This document shows, in pieces, positions 38,489-61,470 of a stretch of 64,000 nucleotides of DNA. The DNA is taken from IMG/VR virus record IMGVR_UViG_3300021426_000001; one strand, given 5' to 3'. The number at the start of each line of letters is the position of its first letter. The stretch's first letter is position 1. This DNA comes from a virus (Duplodnaviria; Caudoviricetes). A model generated the notes under the pieces. That model saw nothing but the letters and a program-made list of their open reading frames with translations, was not told the origin of the DNA and made no database searches. A program made the position numbers and the translations under genes.

Positions 38489-41194
38489 TCACTGCGCATA
38501 GACGTATCTGAATCTGAGTCTCACGACTGGGATGTCGCGGTCTGAAGTATAGTTCACGATGTTGTTGTTGTCATCCAAGATGTTGTCGTCGAAGATCTGC
38601 TTGAGTGCCGGATATACGTAGTTGAAGTTTCTCTTAGCAGTATCGTAAGACACGTCACCGCTCTGGATGGCGTCTCTCAGCATGAAGTAGAAGGACTCTT
38701 CGCTGAGGTTCTCGTTGAGGTTGAAGCTGTTAGCGCCGACTCTTCTGAAAGTCTCCTCACGGACGACTTTTCTAGCCACTAGGTCTTCGATCTCTGATTG
38801 AAGCTTGCTGTAGTTAGCGAGAATGTCGCTCATCGCGTTAGCCATCTTCGTAGCTTCTTCTACCTTTCCGCTCGCCCTGAGAACAGCTAGCCTCATGAGA
38901 AGCTCCTGCATACTCTCTTCAAGCTCGTAGTACTCTGCTGGGAGTCCAGCGTCGAACTCGATCTCGTAGGGAAGCGGAATCGGACGCTCGTCTGTGCTCG
39001 TCGTGACAGGTCTTCCAGTGATCCAGTTCTCTACCGCGTAGATTAGCTTAGAGTCAACGCTTGACATGCGGTTCTTTGTGAAGAATGAGTCTTCTTCGAG
39101 TACGATGTCGAAGTAGTACCCGTCGTCAACTGTCGGATTGCCGTTGAGCGAGAGATAGACATTGTCTGGATCTACGCTCACTTCGTCGATTCTGAACTTC
39201 TCTTCTCTCTGATTCTCCGACTGGATGATCAGACTTATGTCCTTTCCGACCATGCTCTTCAAGATGTCCCTCATGTCGTTTCCGCGAATGTCTTGCTGCG
39301 GGACTATGAGGATGTTCTTGTTCGTCTTGACGTCTCCAGGCTCGAATCTGTAAGTCTTCTCAGTTCCCTTGATGAGCTCAGAGACCTTGATGTCGATGTT
39401 AGCTCTCTTTGCGCCAGCGTGCTTCAGGATCTGGTTGTAGATGTCGGACTTGAAGATCTGGGACTTGAAAGTCGTGTTCTGTGCGAGCCACTTGTACAGG
39501 TCGTTCTCTAGCTCATCTTTGAACTTAGAGAGATCTACGTGTCTGTCGACCTGTATGTCGCCGACGCAGTCGTAGTAGTGGAACAGCGGAGGCATGCTGA
39601 TGAGCTTCGTGTTGATCATCATTCTGTCTTCTGCGTCTGCTCTCACTTGGAGCGCCCACTGACCGAAAGTGCTACGATCGGTGTACTGATCCTGGGTCGT
39701 TCCCTTTGGGTATATAAGGAACGACACGTAGTCGAACAGGTGGCTCATGTAAGTGCTGTAGTCGATGTAGAGAGATGAGCTCGATAGATCTTCCTTCTCG
39801 TCGAACACGTTGACTGGACGGTAGAGACCGTTCGTATCGCGATAGATGTCTGAGAAGAGGCAGTACATGATCAGGTTCGTTCTGCCAGCGTCGTGCTCTC
39901 CGAGCTGATCTTCCATCTGATTTTCGCCGTATGCGATAGCGTGCTTCACGTTGATCGGATCGGTGATAGTGAGAAGGTAAGACATGAAGTCAGGCAGTGT
40001 GATCAGCTTAGCGTTTGATGCGAAGTAGATCTTTGCGTTTCTCTTCATCGCGTCTCTGGCCTCGAAGTCAGTTCCGCCGTGGATAGAGCTCTCGAAGAGG
40101 AATGTCACGTTGTTGCTGATGTTGGTGACTCTGCCCACTCCAGATGCGTATACCTTTCCGACAGTTCTCATCTGTGATCCGACTGCGTCAGGGTAGTTAG
40201 CCTCTGATCCGTCAGTTGTGAAGTACTGAACATAGATGCTCTGATCTGTGCTCGTGAGTCCAGGAGAAGTGTCTATTCCGTTTCCGAAGTATAGACGAAC
40301 CGTCTTGTCGTAGTTCGATCTGATGCAGACGACTGGAAGAGGCGCATCTCCGGGCTTCCTCTTCTTGATATTCTTGTTGAGCTCGACCGCTTCGTCCTCG
40401 ATCTCGAACAGATTGTTCTCACAGAAAGCGTCTGCTTGGTCAGTTCCGATTCCGACTTTGCACAGACCGTACAGCTTGTTGTACTCGCCGTTCTTGAATG
40501 CGAACGGATCTCTTATGCCGTAGTAGTTAGAGAACTTCAGATCGTCGATGTCATACCACTGGTACTGCTGTCCGACCTTGCTTGAGTAAGTGATTGAGTC
40601 GAGGACTTTCACAGTCTTCTTGCCCTGAACGACCCTGATCGTGTGCAGCTTAGAGGTAGCAGCGCTGTTGACCTTTCCGTCTAGCGTGATGTAGCCCTCT
40701 TTCTGAGACTCGTAGCCGTTGACTGCGAATCTGATCTTCTTAGTCCATGACGGATCCTGGCCTCTAGCAACATCGTCGTCTGTCAGCGTGTAAGAGTAGC
40801 ACGCGTCGAGCATGTAGTCATGTCCGTTGAAGCTGAACGTGAGACTCTCGTTGTTCAGCCAGATCGTGTCGCCAGACTGAACCGTCTTCGGAAGAGGACC
40901 TCGAATGTTGAGCGAGATGTCTGCTACTGCTGGAACTGCTCTCTTCGGATTGTAGCCGAGGTTGTGGGACAGCTTGATGACACTCGAGTCTAGCTTAGCA
41001 GTGTCGAGGTAGTTCTCCTCGGCAGTTCTCTGAATGTAGTAGTTCGTCAAGTCCATGACGCCAGAGAACAGCTCCTGGAAGAAGGAGTATATGCTAGCCT
41101 TGCTGAGATTCTTGTATCTCTCGTCTGCTAGAATGCGGTTGTTCCACTCGTCTAGAATGGATTGATGCGTCAATTTTGTATAGTCCAAGCTCAT
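38489..41194 (-). CDS. baseplate wedge protein (T4 gp6-like)
   Basis: ENYLDTAKLDSSVIKLSHNLGYNPKR, LYFGNG and YFTTDGSEAN motifs. Confidence 0.9.
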   Translation of the reverse strand: MSLDYTKLTHQSILDEWNNRILADERYKNLSKASIYSFFQELFSGVMDLTNYYIQRTAEENYLDTAKLDSSVIKLSHNLGYNPKRAVPAVADISLNIRGPLPKTVQSGDTIWLNNESLTFSFNGHDYMLDACYSYTLTDDDVARGQDPSWTKKIRFAVNGYESQKEGYITLDGKVNSAATSKLHTIRVVQGKKTVKVLDSITYSSKVGQQYQWYDIDDLKFSNYYGIRDPFAFKNGEYNKLYGLCKVGIGTDQADAFCENNLFEIEDEAVELNKNIKKRKPGDAPLPVVCIRSNYDKTVRLYFGNGIDTSPGLTSTDQSIYVQYFTTDGSEANYPDAVGSQMRTVGKVYASGVGRVTNISNNVTFLFESSIHGGTDFEARDAMKRNAKIYFASNAKLITLPDFMSYLLTITDPINVKHAIAYGENQMEDQLGEHDAGRTNLIMYCLFSDIYRDTNGLYRPVNVFDEKEDLSSSSLYIDYSTYMSHLFDYVSFLIYPKGTTQDQYTDRSTFGQWALQVRADAEDRMMINTKLISMPPLFHYYDCVGDIQVDRHVDLSKFKDELENDLYKWLAQNTTFKSQIFKSDIYNQILKHAGAKRANIDIKVSELIKGTEKTYRFEPGDVKTNKNILIVPQQDIRGNDMRDILKSMVGKDISLIIQSENQREEKFRIDEVSVDPDNVYLSLNGNPTVDDGYYFDIVLEEDSFFTKNRMSSVDSKLIYAVENWITGRPVTTSTDERPIPLPYEIEFDAGLPAEYYELEESMQELLMRLAVLRASGKVEEATKMANAMSDILANYSKLQSEIEDLVARKVVREETFRRVGANSFNLNENLSEESFYFMLRDAIQSGDVSYDTAKRNFNYVYPALKQIFDDNILDDNNNIVNYTSDRDIPVVRLRFRYVYAQ

Positions 41195-41244
41195 ATAGTA
41201 TTTATAGAACCGGATAAATAAGCATATCTCAAAGGAGAACTACG

Positions 41245-42153
41245 ATGAGAAAAACTAAAGACGTGACACTGAATATCTCTAGCGACGATGTGCTGAAGAT
41301 GATCGAACACGAGGAGAAGACCATGAAGGTCTCTAGCAAAGGTATGCTGAAGGCGGTCAAGGATTCTCGCGAGCGCTTTGACAAGTTCGCTAAGAAACTA
41401 AAAATCCTCGGACCTGAGGGAGAGGAAGAGTTCAAGCCGTTCACATGGCAGAAGAACCTCGGTCTCGCATTCCAGCAGGCTTACGAGTCTAAGAAGAAGT
41501 ATCAGAGAAACTTCGTCGTCGTGAATCCGAGACAGGGCGGAATGACTACCCTTCTGTGCGCATACGCTCTATGGCTCGCATCTACGAAGCCGTGCAAGAG
41601 AGTTGGAATTCTCTGCGGCAGCAACATGCAGGGTGTCGAGAAGATGTTGAGAATCCAAGCGATGTATGACTCTCTCCCTAACTATCTGAAGAAGCCGATC
41701 AAGAAGAGACGCAAAGATCTGCTGGAGTTCACAGACGGAAGCTACATATATGCTACTCACGCCCATAGGAGCGAGGTGCTCGGAAAGACGCTCGATCTGG
41801 TGATTCTGGATGATGCAGCGTTTATCAGGGATCTATATGACTTCTTCAAGTGCTATCTACCGATGCACTCTGCTATGTGCGTCAACTCTAAGACGGACAA
41901 GCCTCAGATGATCGTGACATCTGCTGCTAAGCCAGGGACTGCCTTCGCAGATCTCTATGGTAAGGCAGTCGGAAAGAAGTCTCTGTTCAGAAAGGTGCGC
42001 ATTCCGTGGGACTGCCGTCCCGGCCGAGACAAAGCCTGGAAGGAGAAGATCATCCGCGATTACGGCCAAGCCTTCTTCGACTTCGAATACGACGGAAAGT
42101 TCGCCTCATATTCCGAACCTCCTACTCAGAAATCTGATCCGAAGAAGTCATAG
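41245..42153 (+). CDS. terminase large-subunit ATPase-domain paralogue with degenerate Walker motifs and no nuclease domain
   Basis: FKPFTWQK, PRQGGMTT, LVILDDAAF and PGRDKAWK...EYDGKF match the gp17 N-terminal domain; the ORF ends at the domain boundary. Confidence 0.8.
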   Translation: MRKTKDVTLNISSDDVLKMIEHEEKTMKVSSKGMLKAVKDSRERFDKFAKKLKILGPEGEEEFKPFTWQKNLGLAFQQAYESKKKYQRNFVVVNPRQGGMTTLLCAYALWLASTKPCKRVGILCGSNMQGVEKMLRIQAMYDSLPNYLKKPIKKRRKDLLEFTDGSYIYATHAHRSEVLGKTLDLVILDDAAFIRDLYDFFKCYLPMHSAMCVNSKTDKPQMIVTSAAKPGTAFADLYGKAVGKKSLFRKVRIPWDCRPGRDKAWKEKIIRDYGQAFFDFEYDGKFASYSEPPTQKSDPKKS

Positions 42154-42781
42154 TAGACTTCCCAGATCCGTTCGACTTCTCGTAACGGAAGTCTCCAATG
42201 GTCATTGTCCCTTCCAGGGCAGTGACCTCTTCTTTTGTTATCTTGCGGAGTCCTACCTGCTTCTCGACGTAGAGCATGTTGTGGGCGTTCGTCTTGTTGA
42301 TCTCAGCTTCGAGTCCGAGACGGAAGCAGCGGTTCATAGAGAGCGACATCTGCCATGCTTCTCGTTCTACGAAGTAGCGAGTGATGTTGTCGCATGGCAG
42401 CTTCGGGAGCTTGAGAGTCTCGATGATCGGCAGATCTTTCTGGGTGTATTTTCCGCCGTTGCATGCGAAGTGGATGTAGTGGGAGCACTCATGGAGAAAG
42501 ATCGCTACGTCGTGATCAGATTCGAACTTGAGCACGTTCCTCTGAGTGTCGTAGTAGTTTTTCGAGAGATAGAGGATGTTGACGAACTTCTGAGTCGTGA
42601 AGAATCCTCCGATCCCTCTGCGATCCAGAACTTCTTGGTCCTGAAATACGATAGAAGCGTACTTGGCAGAGGTGATCTTGCCGCGAATGAAGTTCCATGC
42701 GATGCTGAACTTCTTGTTCTCTTCAGTGAGTTCGAGCTTTGCGACCTGAATTCTGGTCAAAATGATGCGGTTGTCTTTCAT
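42122..42781 (-). CDS. putative zincin-like metalloprotease (HExxH)
   Basis: IFLHECSHYIH plus a downstream EREAW; early promoter and AAGGGA SD place the start at 42781. Confidence 0.65.
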   Translation of the reverse strand: MKDNRIILTRIQVAKLELTEENKKFSIAWNFIRGKITSAKYASIVFQDQEVLDRRGIGGFFTTQKFVNILYLSKNYYDTQRNVLKFESDHDVAIFLHECSHYIHFACNGGKYTQKDLPIIETLKLPKLPCDNITRYFVEREAWQMSLSMNRCFRLGLEAEINKTNAHNMLYVEKQVGLRKITKEEVTALEGTMTIGDFRYEKSNGSGKSTMTSSDQISE

Positions 42782-42902: not shown

Positions 42903-42931
42903 CTACTCGTAAAACAACAAAGGACCTAGAA

Positions 42932-44746
42932 ATGGAAATCGAGATCACTCCGGAAAACGTAGAAAAGAAGTTCGCCAACGCAGTCGACTACTACTGCATC
43001 TACATGCCGAACCTCCTCAACTTCTACCAGCTGTTCACACGCCGCGTGAACAACAAGATCGCTTCCATGAGAATCTGCGTCAAGCGCGACGTCACTCCGG
43101 TTCTCGAATACAACGAGAAGTGGGTCTGCGAAATCGACCCGGCTCTCTTCAATCAGGCTCTCGCAATCGATCTCTACCGCTTCATCAATCATCACTGCAC
43201 GCTTCGTGAACTTCAGGGCGCTAACGCTTTCAAGGCTTCCACTGCCGTCTGCAACAGCCCGGAACTTCAACAGTTCCTCAAGGCTGCTCCGTTCGAACTC
43301 GCCGAGATGGCTAGAAAGCTCATCTGGTCTCGCGAAATCATCGAAGAAGAGATCGGAGAGAAGATCTCTGATGAAGACTGGTATTATGAATCCGTCTTCG
43401 AGATCCTCAACCGCAAGTCTCCGCAACAGCAGCAACAGAACCAGAACCAAGACGACAACCAGTCTGGATCTGGTCAGGAACAGCAGCAACAGTCTGGGTC
43501 TTCCGACGATGACAAGAAGGATGACAACAAGGACGGCTCTGGCAAGAACGACCAGAAGGACAAGGACGACAAGTCCAAGGGCTCTTCTAAGAAGGACAAG
43601 GATGGAGAAGAGGGCGACAAGGACTCTGACTCCGACCAACAGGACGGAGACGGTGACGGCGACGAAGAAGACCAAGACCAGAACTCCAACGGCAAGGACG
43701 GAAAGGACAAGGACTCTAACGGGAAAGACGGAAAGGACAAGGACTCTAAGGACCAAGACCAAGAAGGTGACGGCAAGGGCGACAAGAACCAGAAGTCCGA
43801 TGGAAAGGACGGAAAGGATGACCAGAACGAGCAGAACAGCCAAAACGGCGGCAAGGACGGTCAGGAGGGAGACGAAGAAGACGACTCCGACGAACAGGAC
43901 GGCGAAGGCGATTCTGACTCCAAAGACGGTCAAAACGGCAAAGACGGCGATTCCGACAAGCAGGACGGAAACGGCGGAAAGAGCCCTCGTGACCAAGAAC
44001 TCGACGACAACGCCAACGCAGATCCGTCCAAGGCTCCGAACAGCACTGGAAATCCGTTCAAGGACTGGAGCTCTAATGGCGACGAAAACACCGAAGAATG
44101 GGGCAGAAATCAGGTCGTAGACCAGCTCATTCAGGAAGCTTTTGAACACAGCAAGAGCACTGGCTGGGGCTCTCTCACCGGTTCCGAGATCTCTCAAATC
44201 GAGATCGCCAACCGCAGAAAGATCAGCATCACGCCGATTATCGCTTCTTTCGCTGCCTCTGTCCGCACGAGAAAGCGCTTCGCAACCCGCATGCGCTACA
44301 ACAAGCGCTACGGATTGATCTTTCCGGGCTACCGTCTCGACCGCAAGTCCAGAATCCTCTTCGCCATCGACTCTTCGGGATCTATGAGCGACGAAGACAT
44401 CAACAAGGGCTGCGCAATTCTGCACAACTTCCTCAAGAAGTGCGACATCGACGTGGCATTCTGGGATGCACAGATGATTGACCCGTTCAAGTTCAAGAAG
44501 AACATCACGAAGATCGATGCTCCGGGCCGTGGCGGCACTGATCCGCACTGCGTAGGTGAATACCTCGACGAACATCAGAAGCTCCACTACGACGGCGTCA
44601 TCCTCTTCACTGACTGCATCTGGCGCTGGGAAGAGAACAACCTCAAGATGCCTATCTTCATCATCAGCTCGGAAGAAAAATACCGCGTGCCGAGCTTCGT
44701 GAAGCACCATACGACGATCCAGGCTCTCACTCACTGCTTCGACTAA
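42932..44746 (+). CDS. VWA-domain protein (DUF2201-type: peptidase-like N-domain, acidic low-complexity linker, VWA)
   Basis: MIDAS motif IDSSGSM, GRGGTD, ILFTD; D/K/G/Q-rich linker. Confidence 0.85.
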   Translation: MEIEITPENVEKKFANAVDYYCIYMPNLLNFYQLFTRRVNNKIASMRICVKRDVTPVLEYNEKWVCEIDPALFNQALAIDLYRFINHHCTLRELQGANAFKASTAVCNSPELQQFLKAAPFELAEMARKLIWSREIIEEEIGEKISDEDWYYESVFEILNRKSPQQQQQNQNQDDNQSGSGQEQQQQSGSSDDDKKDDNKDGSGKNDQKDKDDKSKGSSKKDKDGEEGDKDSDSDQQDGDGDGDEEDQDQNSNGKDGKDKDSNGKDGKDKDSKDQDQEGDGKGDKNQKSDGKDGKDDQNEQNSQNGGKDGQEGDEEDDSDEQDGEGDSDSKDGQNGKDGDSDKQDGNGGKSPRDQELDDNANADPSKAPNSTGNPFKDWSSNGDENTEEWGRNQVVDQLIQEAFEHSKSTGWGSLTGSEISQIEIANRRKISITPIIASFAASVRTRKRFATRMRYNKRYGLIFPGYRLDRKSRILFAIDSSGSMSDEDINKGCAILHNFLKKCDIDVAFWDAQMIDPFKFKKNITKIDAPGRGGTDPHCVGEYLDEHQKLHYDGVILFTDCIWRWEENNLKMPIFIISSEEKYRVPSFVKHHTTIQALTHCFD

Positions 44747-44765
44747 CTTCAACCAAGGACAAACT

Positions 44766-44981
44766 ATGAACAAGAAACTCATCGCACGCTTCATCCACGA
44801 CTTCGTAGAATCCAAGTACCGCGATCTCATTCCCTACTCTGTCATCGAGAATTCAGTCACTGTGTACCCTGATGGCAGATTTGGCTTCAACTGTCATGAT
44901 CTGATGATGAAGTACGGGATAGGCCTAGATCAGTTCAAGAGGGACTTCTCAGACCTGATTCTGATCTTCAACAAGACGTAG
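44766..44981 (+). CDS. hypothetical early protein
   Basis: AAGGAC SD. Confidence 0.7.
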   Translation: MNKKLIARFIHDFVESKYRDLIPYSVIENSVTVYPDGRFGFNCHDLMMKYGIGLDQFKRDFSDLILIFNKT

Positions 44982-45072: not shown

Positions 45073-45378
45073 ATGAGAAAAGATGAAAAGCTCCACAAAA
45101 TCTACGTTGCGCTCGAAAACGCACTCAAAGATCTCAATCTTCAGCATCACGGCTATCCGGAAATAGTGAACTTCACGGTCTTCCAGACTGGCACTCCAGA
45201 GGTCTTCGCATTCTTCCCTAACCTCGGTCTCGTTGAGGCTAAGGTAGCTGCAGGCGAGACTACGGTCGACGAAGTCATGAGGAACGTCAAGAAGTTCGAC
45301 GACGAAACCGCAGAATATCTCTTCGAAGTCGCATCCGATCTCTACTTCCACAACACTTTCGTGGGTCTTCCCAAATAA
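45073..45378 (+). CDS. hypothetical early protein
   Basis: Has its own early promoter and SD. Confidence 0.8.
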   Translation: MRKDEKLHKIYVALENALKDLNLQHHGYPEIVNFTVFQTGTPEVFAFFPNLGLVEAKVAAGETTVDEVMRNVKKFDDETAEYLFEVASDLYFHNTFVGLPK

Positions 45379-45404
45379 AACTCAAAATTTTCTCGATTTT
45401 GGGG

Positions 45405-45433
45405 TTTACAATCTGTTGAGAAATTCCTATATT
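45405..45433 (+). promoter_or_regulatory. early promoter TTTACA-N17-TATATT
   Basis: Conserved early motif. Confidence 0.85.
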
Positions 45434-45478
45434 GATAATGTAAAACAAAAGAGCTAACTTCAACAAGGACCATTTAAA

Positions 45479-46606
45479 ATGCTCGAAAAAGTCTCTATCG
45501 CAGAATTTATCGAACTCGCCCTCTGCTGCCCTGATGAACAGGCAATGCTCATTCTCGGCGACTTCGGTATTGGTAAGACCCAAGTCGTTCAGAAGGTCGG
45601 AACTATTCTCGGAATAGACGTCATCGTGTTCGACTGCACTCACCTCAATGACCCTGGCGACATTCTCGGTCTTCCGTCCATCATCAACGGTCGCACCATC
45701 TTCAACCCGACTTACTGGTATCATCCTGAAAAGCCGGTGCTGCTCTTCTTCGACGAAGTATTCCGTGCTACTCCGGAAGTTCGCGCTGCTCTCATGACTC
45801 TCTGCTTGGACCAGACAATTGGCGACAAGAAGCTCGCTCCTGGCTCTCGCGTCTTCGCTGCTGCTAACCCGCCGGGATTCCACGGCTACGAAGGTGAAAT
45901 TCCTGACCCGGCTCAGCTCTCCCGCTACGCTCCGTACTGGCTTGATCCGACCTTCAACGAATGGTACGAATACGCTAAGGAAGCTAAGGTTCACCCAGCT
46001 ATCCTCGAATACTTGAACAACAACAAGAAGGACCTCGACGCTTACTCCGCTGCTAGCGACATGAACGTCGCAGCCGACGACGGCAACGGCGCCGACCTCA
46101 AGATCCTCCAGTGCCGTCGTTCTTGGTTCAAGGCTTCCGACAACCTCTACAAGGCCGAGAAGGTCAAGAAGGTCAAGAAGCTCGACCGAAACCTCGTGAT
46201 CCGCATCATGAGCGGCTACATCCCGGCTACGATGGCTGTGAAGTTCGCTCAGACCTACATGAACACTTCCACTTCGAGCCTCAACGCCGAAGACGTCCTC
46301 AACGACTGGAAGAAGGTCAAACCGGCCGATGGCGCTAAGCTGGATGTGCCGACCGCTGCAAAGCTCGCTGGCGACATCAAGCTCATCGTCAAGGAAACGA
46401 TGAAGGAAAAGGGATCTATCCCGAAGAAGTGGAAGAACAACTTCTCTGGCTTCATTCAGGAAGGTCTCTCGAAGGAATCCCAAGTCGCTGTCATTAACAA
46501 CCTGATCTTCCAGGACATGACGAACAACGAAGACTGGGTCTTCTGGATCTCCGACGACGAACTCCAGTCGTTCTTCGAAACCACGGTGGCCTCCAAGGTC
46601 GCCTAA
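45479..46606 (+). CDS. MoxR-like AAA+ ATPase
   Basis: Walker A GDFGIGKT, Walker B LLFFDE, sensor AAANP, arginine finger DPAQLSR. Confidence 0.9.
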   Translation: MLEKVSIAEFIELALCCPDEQAMLILGDFGIGKTQVVQKVGTILGIDVIVFDCTHLNDPGDILGLPSIINGRTIFNPTYWYHPEKPVLLFFDEVFRATPEVRAALMTLCLDQTIGDKKLAPGSRVFAAANPPGFHGYEGEIPDPAQLSRYAPYWLDPTFNEWYEYAKEAKVHPAILEYLNNNKKDLDAYSAASDMNVAADDGNGADLKILQCRRSWFKASDNLYKAEKVKKVKKLDRNLVIRIMSGYIPATMAVKFAQTYMNTSTSSLNAEDVLNDWKKVKPADGAKLDVPTAAKLAGDIKLIVKETMKEKGSIPKKWKNNFSGFIQEGLSKESQVAVINNLIFQDMTNNEDWVFWISDDELQSFFETTVASKVA

Positions 46607-46619
46607 CATTAAAATTCTC

Positions 46620-46701: not shown

Positions 46702-47466
46702 ATGTCAATGGATATTGAAAAAGCGCTTAACATACTCTCTGAGTCTCACATCATCTTGGAGAGAAAGAAGGTCTCTGAGATGACTCCTGAAGAGTACGAG
46801 AGAGATCTCGCAGCGAGAAGAAAGAGAAGAGAGCTTAGAAAGCAGAGAGCTGCTAACGCTTCGCCTGCTCAGCAGCCTGAGAAACCGAAACAGGCTGAGC
46901 CGAGAGAAACTCCGAAGCCGACTGGAAAGTGGTACGTGATCGGAAGGAGATCTCCGATTCCAGAGACACTAGAAGAAAAGGGACTCGTGAAGAAGCTCGC
47001 TACTAATGAGGACCTAGATGCATTCTTGAGATACAAGGGCGGTCTGAAGATGGGCCCGTTCGGCACTAAGGAAGAGGCTGTGGCTGCAGCGAGAAGCTCA
47101 GTGAAGAATCTAGTGAACTATTACAGAGATAGAATCTCCAAGAAGGTAAAAGAGAATCCAGACTACTTGACTGAGTACTCTCAGGACAATTCCTACGTCA
47201 ATTCTAAGCTATACGTAGTAGACTTCTCCGAGAAGAACCGCAAATGGTCTAGCGGTAGAAGAGGTCCGGGCGACTCTGGCTGGTGGTACAACTCAGACGA
47301 TGAGGCTTCTGACAATTTGAACAGACCAGCTAAGAAGTTCAACGACGACCTCACGAAGCTCATAGAGGATGCACTAGAGGCTAAGCGTGAGCGTCAGAGA
47401 CGCAGCAGCTACTCTTCATGGGATCCGAACTCTCCGACCTACAGAAACGTCTTCGCTCATCATTAA
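46702..47466 (+). CDS. putative internal head protein (paralogue 1)
   Basis: TATAAATA at 46678-46685; ILSESHIILE N-terminus. Confidence 0.65.
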   Translation: MSMDIEKALNILSESHIILERKKVSEMTPEEYERDLAARRKRRELRKQRAANASPAQQPEKPKQAEPRETPKPTGKWYVIGRRSPIPETLEEKGLVKKLATNEDLDAFLRYKGGLKMGPFGTKEEAVAAARSSVKNLVNYYRDRISKKVKENPDYLTEYSQDNSYVNSKLYVVDFSEKNRKWSSGRRGPGDSGWWYNSDDEASDNLNRPAKKFNDDLTKLIEDALEAKRERQRRSSYSSWDPNSPTYRNVFAHH

Positions 47467-47481
47467 GAAGGAGATTTGAAC

Positions 47482-47955
47482 ATGTCTATGGATCTAAAAA
47501 GAGCACTTGGAATTATCAATGAGTCTAGACTCATTCTTGAGCGTAAGAGGGCTTCTGAAATGACGCCTGAAGAGCACGAGAAGTATCTAGCTGATAGATC
47601 GAACAGAAGAGCTGCGAGAAAGAGAGTAGCGTCTTTCGCAGTAGAGAGGAACAAGCTAAAAGAACTAATCGCTTGCGCCGAGGGTCTACTTGGGGCTAGA
47701 GAAGAGCTCCTGAAGAGAGGCTGGGAACCACTAGAGGGACGTGACATCGACAAAGAGCATCAGGGATTCTGGCTCAAGAAGGCTAATGGACCCGATAGAT
47801 GGATATATGTTGGAGCCCACATCGCATACCTAGGCGATGGCGTAAGAGTACGTATCGACAATCCAGCAGAAGATGCGTTCATAAAGCCTGTAGCTACTAA
47901 GGAATCGATCGTATCAGCTATCGATAATCTCTTGGCTAAGAACAATCTTCAGTAG
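47482..47955 (+). CDS. putative internal head protein (paralogue 2)
   Basis: Shares its N-terminal ~50 aa with the previous gene; AAGGAG SD. Confidence 0.65.
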   Translation: MSMDLKRALGIINESRLILERKRASEMTPEEHEKYLADRSNRRAARKRVASFAVERNKLKELIACAEGLLGAREELLKRGWEPLEGRDIDKEHQGFWLKKANGPDRWIYVGAHIAYLGDGVRVRIDNPAEDAFIKPVATKESIVSAIDNLLAKNNLQ

Positions 47956-60649: not shown

Positions 60650-61381
60650 CTACTCTAGCTTGAACTTCGGCAGATCTTCTTCTTTGACCTTCTGAACTGG
60701 AGGCATAGCGCTCTTGACGAGCTTGAGAAGCTCATCGGAAGCGAAGTTGAACGTGTTGTTGATCTGTGTGATCTGAGCGCCATGACCATTCTGGCCAGCT
60801 GCAGCAGCTTCCATCTGATCTTTCATCACGTCGTGCTTGATGTTTCCAGTGCCCTTGTCCTCTACGATCTTGTAGTCTGTCACCATCTGGTCTATCTTGG
60901 CTAGACGCATGATGTTGTCAGAGACAGTCTTAGAGAGATTTCCGTATACCTCGAAGAGGTGCGGGTTAGTGCCGATCTTCAGCTGAGACTCGATGCAGTC
61001 CAGGACAGCTCTGTTGTCGGAGATGAGAGCCTTTAGCTGCGCCTTCATGTAGGCGCGATCTTCGAGGTCATATCTCTGGAGCTTCACTTCTTTTTCGAGC
61101 GCTACGATCTGCTTGTGATCTTCCTTCGCTTTCTGCTTCATCTCAGCTACTGACGGACCGGACGGCTCGTCATCTTCGTCTGACTCTTGTGCGTCTGGAA
61201 CAGTGTTCACGAGAGCGTCGTCTAGGAAGCTCATCGGATCTGGCGCTGCGACTGGAGGAGTCGGAGTCACTTGCTGCGCTTCTGAAGCTAGTTGAGGTTT
61301 TGGCTGTGTATTTCCCTCGTCTCTAACGTCTTCTATCTCGAAGTCGCGGACGAGAGCATCGATTGAAGTTTCTAAGCTCAT
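60650..61381 (-). CDS. small terminase subunit (T4 gp16-like)
   Basis: PHLFEVYGNLSKTV and ITQINNTFNFASDELLKLV motifs. Confidence 0.7.
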   Translation of the reverse strand: MSLETSIDALVRDFEIEDVRDEGNTQPKPQLASEAQQVTPTPPVAAPDPMSFLDDALVNTVPDAQESDEDDEPSGPSVAEMKQKAKEDHKQIVALEKEVKLQRYDLEDRAYMKAQLKALISDNRAVLDCIESQLKIGTNPHLFEVYGNLSKTVSDNIMRLAKIDQMVTDYKIVEDKGTGNIKHDVMKDQMEAAAAGQNGHGAQITQINNTFNFASDELLKLVKSAMPPVQKVKEEDLPKFKLE

Positions 61382-61470
61382 AAGTTGTCCTTCTTGGATA
61401 TTCTATTTATCGTGAAAACACAAAAACGGCTGCCGCTCTTGCGACAGCCTTAGTGAACAGATGGATGAGC

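Follow-up and report, generated by a model that had tools for sequence, protein, structure and literature searches.

Why would a large phage maintain a free-standing terminase ATPase domain in which catalytic residues have been replaced? The question is raised by one gene in the window, a stretch of 64,000 nucleotides from a Caudoviricetes virus. An earlier note on this DNA had read the gene as a terminase decoy or sponge, or a packaging-motor regulator, and had expected the functional terminase to lie elsewhere in the genome.

Gene identity, active-site motifs and locus

The gene encodes a 302-aa protein (P0001) and has no internal stop. It matches Terminase_6N above the Pfam cut-off as well as PHROG terminase families, and in a PDB search it resembles residues 92-268, the ATPase domain, of T4 gp17 (2o0h, E 1e-9). 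A predicted model built from a 148-row alignment (pLDDT 88) has a TM of 0.75 to 2o0h and covers both subdomains, and P0001 keeps the whole ATPase domain including the lid subdomain. These results confirm the gp17-like N-terminal domain that had been described from the letters alone.

In the alignment to 2o0h, M100 of P0001 falls on T4 K166 and D190 falls on T4 E256, so the two replacements that the earlier note reported, Walker A Lys to Met and Walker B Glu to Asp, are borne out. E256 is the catalytic glutamate of T4, and in lambda terminase the same Glu-to-Asp change (E179D) is lethal and slows packaging about 13-fold while some weak ATPase is kept (PMC6379665). Across alignment A1 (P0001 and its orthologues), the Walker A lysine is Met or Thr in 23/23 sequences and the glutamate after Walker B is Asp in 23/23. 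Some full-length terminases have the P-loop lysine shifted in front of RQ, but this compensating lysine is absent from P0001, which has Asn there. Motif III, which the earlier note did not list, is also degenerate (T-S-A-A, expected S-T-P), and the arginine of I-R-G is Leu in P0001 and is retained in only 4/23 orthologues. Q69, R96, T101 and D189 are retained and are invariant in A1. When the P-loop lysine is lost on top of the glutamate, real turnover is unlikely, and from this motif loss P0001 is probably catalytically dead.

The RNase H-like nuclease domain is absent from P0001 in either form, fused or intein-joined, and the stop comes after the linker. A search for longer forms of the family found none, which is weak evidence. 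Judged by its motifs, P0001 has the gp17-fold ASCE ATPase domain but is not a functional T4-type large terminase (TerL), as the lysine, the glutamate and the nuclease are all missing.

P0001 has a fixed place in rumen jumbo phages of ~250 kb. The gene order is gp13, tail tube, wedge-like gene, P0001, HExxH gene, vWA, MoxR, and the same order is found in a 49%-identical relative and in rumen contigs of 251 kb and 257 kb. The HExxH gene is kept at the same place in all of the ~250-kb relatives examined. Because this convergent gene overlaps the 3' end of P0001 by 32 nt, there is no frameshift continuation, and the earlier description of a stop at the ATPase/nuclease boundary that is not a simple frameshift stands. 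Upstream, the Shine-Dalgarno sequence ends 7 nt before the ATG and is preceded by a T4 late-promoter variant, GATAAATA, which occurs 7 times in the window (0.67 expected), mostly right ahead of starts. The late-promoter site is kept in 5/5 of the ~250-kb loci checked. Across four orthologous loci it reads GATAAATA, AATAAATA or the canonical TATAAATA, and the canonical form is found in two distant orthologues (L007 and L019). This enrichment and the orthologous loci support the late promoter, strong Shine-Dalgarno and intact frame that had been noted before. Contigs from RNA libraries of two studies cover parts of the gene; strand and level are unreadable from contigs, and the runs were picked with the window. 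Coordinates are collected in the table.

Features of the P0001 locus and of the probable small terminase gene (window positions)
Feature	Position	Strand	Basis or remark
Canonical late promoter of divergent baseplate-wedge-like gene (38489-41194)	41199..41206	-	Back-to-back; also present in G001, which lacks the paralogue
T4 late-promoter variant GATAAATA	41213..41220	+	Over-representation, site conservation
Shine-Dalgarno AAGGAG	41232..41237	+	Sequence
Stand-alone gp17-type ATPase-domain paralogue (P0001)	41245..42153	+	Pfam, PHROG, PDB, model; no nuclease, no intein fragment
Adenine-binding Gln69, retained	41449..41451	+	Invariant in A1
Near-invariant basic patch, residues 81-88	41485..41508	+	Alignment A1
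Walker A P95-T101, Met100 for Lys (Thr in some orthologues), Arg96 kept	41527..41547	+	
Near-invariant basic patch, residues 150-157	41692..41715	+	Alignment A1
Walker B Asp189 and Asp190 (Asp for catalytic Glu)	41809..41814	+	Invariant in 23 sequences
Degenerate motif III (T-S-A for S-T-P)	41917..41925	+	Alignment
Convergent HExxH gene (ATG 42781, stop 42122)	42122..42781	-	Overlaps P0001 3' end
Terminator-like hairpin after P0001 stop	42200..42227	+	Consensus match only
Probable small terminase (TerS)	60650..61381	-	Weak PHROG 445 match, E 0.015; promoter GATAAATA at 61404-61411

Two other features were seen nearby. Long antisense open frames (42926-44830 and 45287-46609, both on the minus strand) lie over the vWA and MoxR genes and are probably a by-product of codon bias, and the tandem late genes at 46702-47466 and 47476-47955 (+) have near-identical N-termini, a local duplication.

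There are 22 orthologues of P0001 (264-302 aa, 75-98% identity); one is a cut fragment and the others are similar in length. All 22 lack both the Walker A lysine and the catalytic glutamate. Frames are whole and dN/dS is 0.27-0.29, so that neutral decay, for which dN/dS across relatives had been suggested as a check, is not borne out. That P0001 is a real gene maintained under purifying selection is well supported by these comparisons. The conserved promoter site and the purifying selection likewise support the maintained, non-catalytic paralogue of the earlier note, non-catalytic being read from the motifs. Between the window and L003, dN of P0001 is 0.097 versus 0.004-0.048 in five neighbour genes. 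The variable positions of the protein include residues 124-135, 171-179 and 198-218. In the comparison with L006:10001-10867, dS of P0001 (0.54) is about half of that of the flanking genes (0.95-1.6), hinting that the allele may have moved between lineages. Scans of IMG/VR, JGI metagenomes and GTDB with P0001 and A1 gave no orthologue.

The split terminase and the paralogue clade

The window belongs to a contig of 262,403 bp (100% over 12.5 kb). At a distance of about 17.6 kb outside the window, this contig has a 298-codon Terminase_6N gene (P0223; L165:1-638) whose residues 88-298, read directly, have intact Walker B, I-R-G and motif III, followed by a 32-aa intein N-fragment (IntN). Walker A was read in a 97%-identical copy of a close strain and is intact there. 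The half with intein-C and nuclease was read in relatives (L061-L066 among the loci read) as an unlinked gene, more than 100 kb from the ATPase half in both G001 and G002, and the split layout is also found in 400-kb relatives. P0001 is about 40 kb from its own TerL-N and not adjacent to it. These gene structures indicate that two unlinked genes with an atypical split intein encode the true terminase, the nuclease half having been seen in relatives. The expectation of a functional terminase elsewhere thus holds in that a second ATPase with intact motifs is on the contig, but the full-length gp17 does not, as the gene is split instead.

An IntN starting with Cys after QEYA is present in P0223 and L165 and absent from P0001. 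The earlier note had considered that P0001 could itself be part of a split terminase; this fails because an intein fragment is missing from P0001 but present on the second, motif-intact ATPase. As far as its sequence tells, P0001 is neither half. The probable TerS gene is conserved in 5/5 related genomes, and a Pfam search for TerS with PF11053 gave no match. The GATAAATA variant common to P0001 and this gene is not kept in G001. We also observed that the leader of the probable TerS gene resembles that of P0001 after the common GATAAATA.

We gathered the family by profile search over 1.8 billion proteins, in which short relatives ranked first. The short ATPase-only relatives group in one old clade (support 100/98) that is distinct from the split N halves. 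Several members end in E-Y-A-x-E-F-I-G-S without an IntN. Because this end spans the intein site of the spliced TerL, the source was an uninterrupted terminase gene. Recent duplication from the phage's own TerL lineage was rejected (AU p 7.6e-5), and so was origin from an intein-bearing N half, by a tree test and by the C-terminal E-F-I-G-S without IntN. P0001 shares just 30-32% identity with its own TerL. Its domain has a net charge of +18 versus a median of +4, and the pI of the clade is 8.6-9.7 versus 5.8-7.6 for TerL-N halves.

Many members of the clade, P0205 and P0209 among them, have intact motifs, including the gene at the exact same locus in G002 and G003. Between these genomes and the lineage of the window, TerL-N is 90% identical and TerS 66-73%, versus 35-36% for the paralogue, which is catalytically intact there by its motifs. 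Other members are degenerate in the same way as P0001 (P0025, P0029 and partly P0031). The tree needs three changes, but a single origin of the loss of catalysis is not rejected (AU p 0.39), so we do not claim several independent losses. G001, a complete DTR genome, encodes the two TerL halves but lacks the paralogue; its junction is clean, with the wedge promoter abutting the HExxH stop. That the paralogue is accessory and dispensable is well supported by its absence from this complete genome. Every genome examined that has the paralogue also has a split TerL.

Outside the studied clade there is a separate set of 250-310 aa proteins with only the terminase ATPase and with other degenerate motifs (P0035, P0038, P0042, P0057, P0071, P0078, P0081, P0096, P0127 and P0171). 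In the complete 424-kb genome G006, the third terminase-like ORF (L158:1495-2070, 191 aa) has degenerated much further and shows no recognisable Walker motifs.

In 400-kb jumbo phages, a late-promoter-like site is separated from the start of the paralogue by a conserved multi-hairpin leader of about 125 nt that shows compensatory changes (L020:7843-7976, L021:7849-7982, L009:8302-8427 and 26 IMG/VR loci). All 29 full copies are directly upstream of the paralogue family, often amid tRNA genes. The leader had no match in Rfam and none by BLAST in GenBank phages. The leader model R1 had no match anywhere in the window, where the intergenic region upstream of P0001 is 50 bp, or around T4 vs.8.

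Possible roles of the paralogue

It is well supported that P0001 is an accessory, late (by its promoter), ATPase-only copy of an ancestral unsplit large terminase that has lost the P-loop lysine and the catalytic glutamate. Since it is under purifying selection without apparent catalysis, it would act by binding and not as a motor. Because it is optional and diverges far faster than TerL, it resembles a gene involved in conflict more than one whose product works with conserved phage machinery.

The reading that we tentatively prefer, possible but short of probable, is a late decoy against terminase-sensing immunity of the Avs1-3 or Upx type. Terminase ATPase domains are ligands of Avs1-3 and Upx; Avs2 contacts terminase by way of a bridging ATP, and Avs3 engages both active-site residues and ATP (PMC13601566). 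As a decoy, P0001 would be made from its own late promoter and strong Shine-Dalgarno, probably in excess of the trans-spliced TerL, and would show a terminase-shaped surface to the host sensor. The protein occupying the sensor would then lack the ATP-loaded site touched by Avs2 and Avs3, and the real motor would be shielded in hosts with such a sensor. Consistent with this are the lack of the paralogue from a genome with both TerL halves, its rapid divergence in an unchanging genomic position despite low dN/dS and a whole frame, the hint of allele exchange in the comparison with L006, the conserved late-promoter site, and the position of the lost residues at the nucleotide site, the part contacted by Avs2 and Avs3.

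A terminase look-alike can also be a trigger instead of a shield, because ATPase domains on their own raise EcAvs2 activity more than 1000-fold and also activate Upx, and T4 vs.8 causes toxicity together with EcAvs2 (PMC13601566). Most Asp-to-Ala mutants of Walker B and the nuclease are still able to trigger Upx (PMC13601566). The family did not need to be dead, because syntenic orthologues with intact motifs exist, and the low identity of P0001 to its own TerL and its far more basic character also count against a decoy. Slightly less likely than the decoy reading as such is the more specific claim that P0001 is the first natural antagonist of terminase-sensing immunity built from terminase, a former trigger that no longer activates the sensor once its ATP site is lost. 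The intact P0209 and the putatively dead P0001 are alleles at one locus and so form a natural test pair.

It is rather unlikely that P0001 is a non-catalytic modulator of the phage's own packaging, binding small terminase, portal or unspliced TerL halves and restraining cutting or initiation until proheads are ready. The late timing, the promoter variant that it has in common with the probable TerS gene, the retention of the whole domain with its lid, and the split TerL in every examined genome with the paralogue would all suit such a role. However, the paralogue is absent from the complete relative G001, where the common promoter variant is not kept either, and its divergence from G002 and G003, compared with that of TerL-N and TerS, is unlike that of a partner of conserved machinery.

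Unlikely, too, is a nucleic-acid-binding protein on a terminase fold, in which an ancestral ATPase worked with the structured RNA and this lineage lost hydrolysis together with the neighbouring RNA but retained the basic surface. The basic clade with its near-invariant Lys/Arg patches and the covarying leader directly upstream of the paralogue at 29 loci of 400-kb phages point that way, but P0001 itself has no such leader, basic charge alone is weak evidence, and the leader could be purely cis-regulatory.

We consider it improbable that the family has a job that needs no hydrolysis, its active-site changes being an escape from terminase sensors and not a decoy design, with weak ATP binding or slow turnover perhaps remaining. 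Intact and degenerate members do occur in one clade, with Gln69, Arg96, Thr101 and Asp189 invariant; lambda E179D keeps weak ATPase, and vs.8 shows that such proteins can be sensed. This explanation names no job, however, and the combined loss of lysine and glutamate speaks against turnover.

More improbable still is a weapon aimed at co-infecting phages or satellites, in which P0001 as a dominant-negative subunit would poison the competitor's terminase ring and spare its own. An accessory, fast-evolving, late protein only about 30% like its own TerL could play this part, and the lambda Glu-to-Asp mutant is both slow and lethal, but orthologues at the same locus are intact and cross-binding is a proposal. 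Finally, a neutral relic or the N half of a split terminase is very improbable: the gene changes more quickly than those around it and may be lost, and the phage group has a separate nuclease gene, but purifying selection, whole frames and a conserved promoter site argue against a relic, and the ATPase half on its own contig, with intact Walker B, motif III and IntN, argues against an N half.

Large phages have been known since 2017 to carry extra terminase-ATPase genes, and attention was drawn to vs.8 in 2026, with no function assigned. Since one locus in close relatives gives dead, intact and absent states, the decoy idea is testable with few genes in E. coli. Should the dead allele block Avs or Upx, this would show that a phage can shield an immutable immune target and that activation of the sensor needs the ATP site. 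If P0001 instead binds RNA or the packaging motor, it would be a new accessory of T4-type packaging with trans-spliced terminases.

Comparison with known systems

P0001 has the fold of the T4 gp17 N-terminal ATPase domain (2o0h, 2o0j, 3cpe; PF03237) and keeps the Q motif, the Walker A Arg and the Walker B Asp. Unlike T4 gp17, it has no nuclease, its Lys166 and Glu256 equivalents are replaced, motif III and I-R-G are degenerate, and it is strongly basic and accessory. The split TerL N half, P0223, is also a free gene of about 300 codons with only the ATPase domain, ending near the same place. P0223 has intact motifs and the 32-aa IntN, whereas the paralogues run into a C-extein-like E-F-I-G-S without IntN, at 30% identity.

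Truncated terminase genes with no function assigned have been described in Rak2-like jumbo phages (CBB_274), phiM12 and phiN3 (PMC5259590). Like P0001, genes of the CBB_274 kind are second, incomplete gp17-domain genes in genomes that also encode a working terminase, and a 235-aa CBB protein came up as a structural match. CBB_274 adjoins TerL, whereas P0001 is unlinked, with its own late promoter, in a phage with a split-intein TerL. As an ATPase-only second gp17 gene, P0001 is, by its sequence features, a truncated terminase paralogue in the loose sense.

T4 vs.8 (NP_049732) is comparable to P0001 in being free-standing, terminase-ATPase-like, lineage-restricted and relevant to Avs2 sensing, although the two have no significant pairwise similarity. 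With 219 aa, vs.8 keeps Walker A and B and activates EcAvs2 (PMC13601566), whereas the Walker motifs of P0001 are degenerate. Truncated terminase paralogues as such are known from Rak2-like CBB_274 and vs.8. What is new is a defined clade whose gene is dead, intact or missing at a single locus in different relatives, in a split-TerL background, with an RNA leader in distant members.
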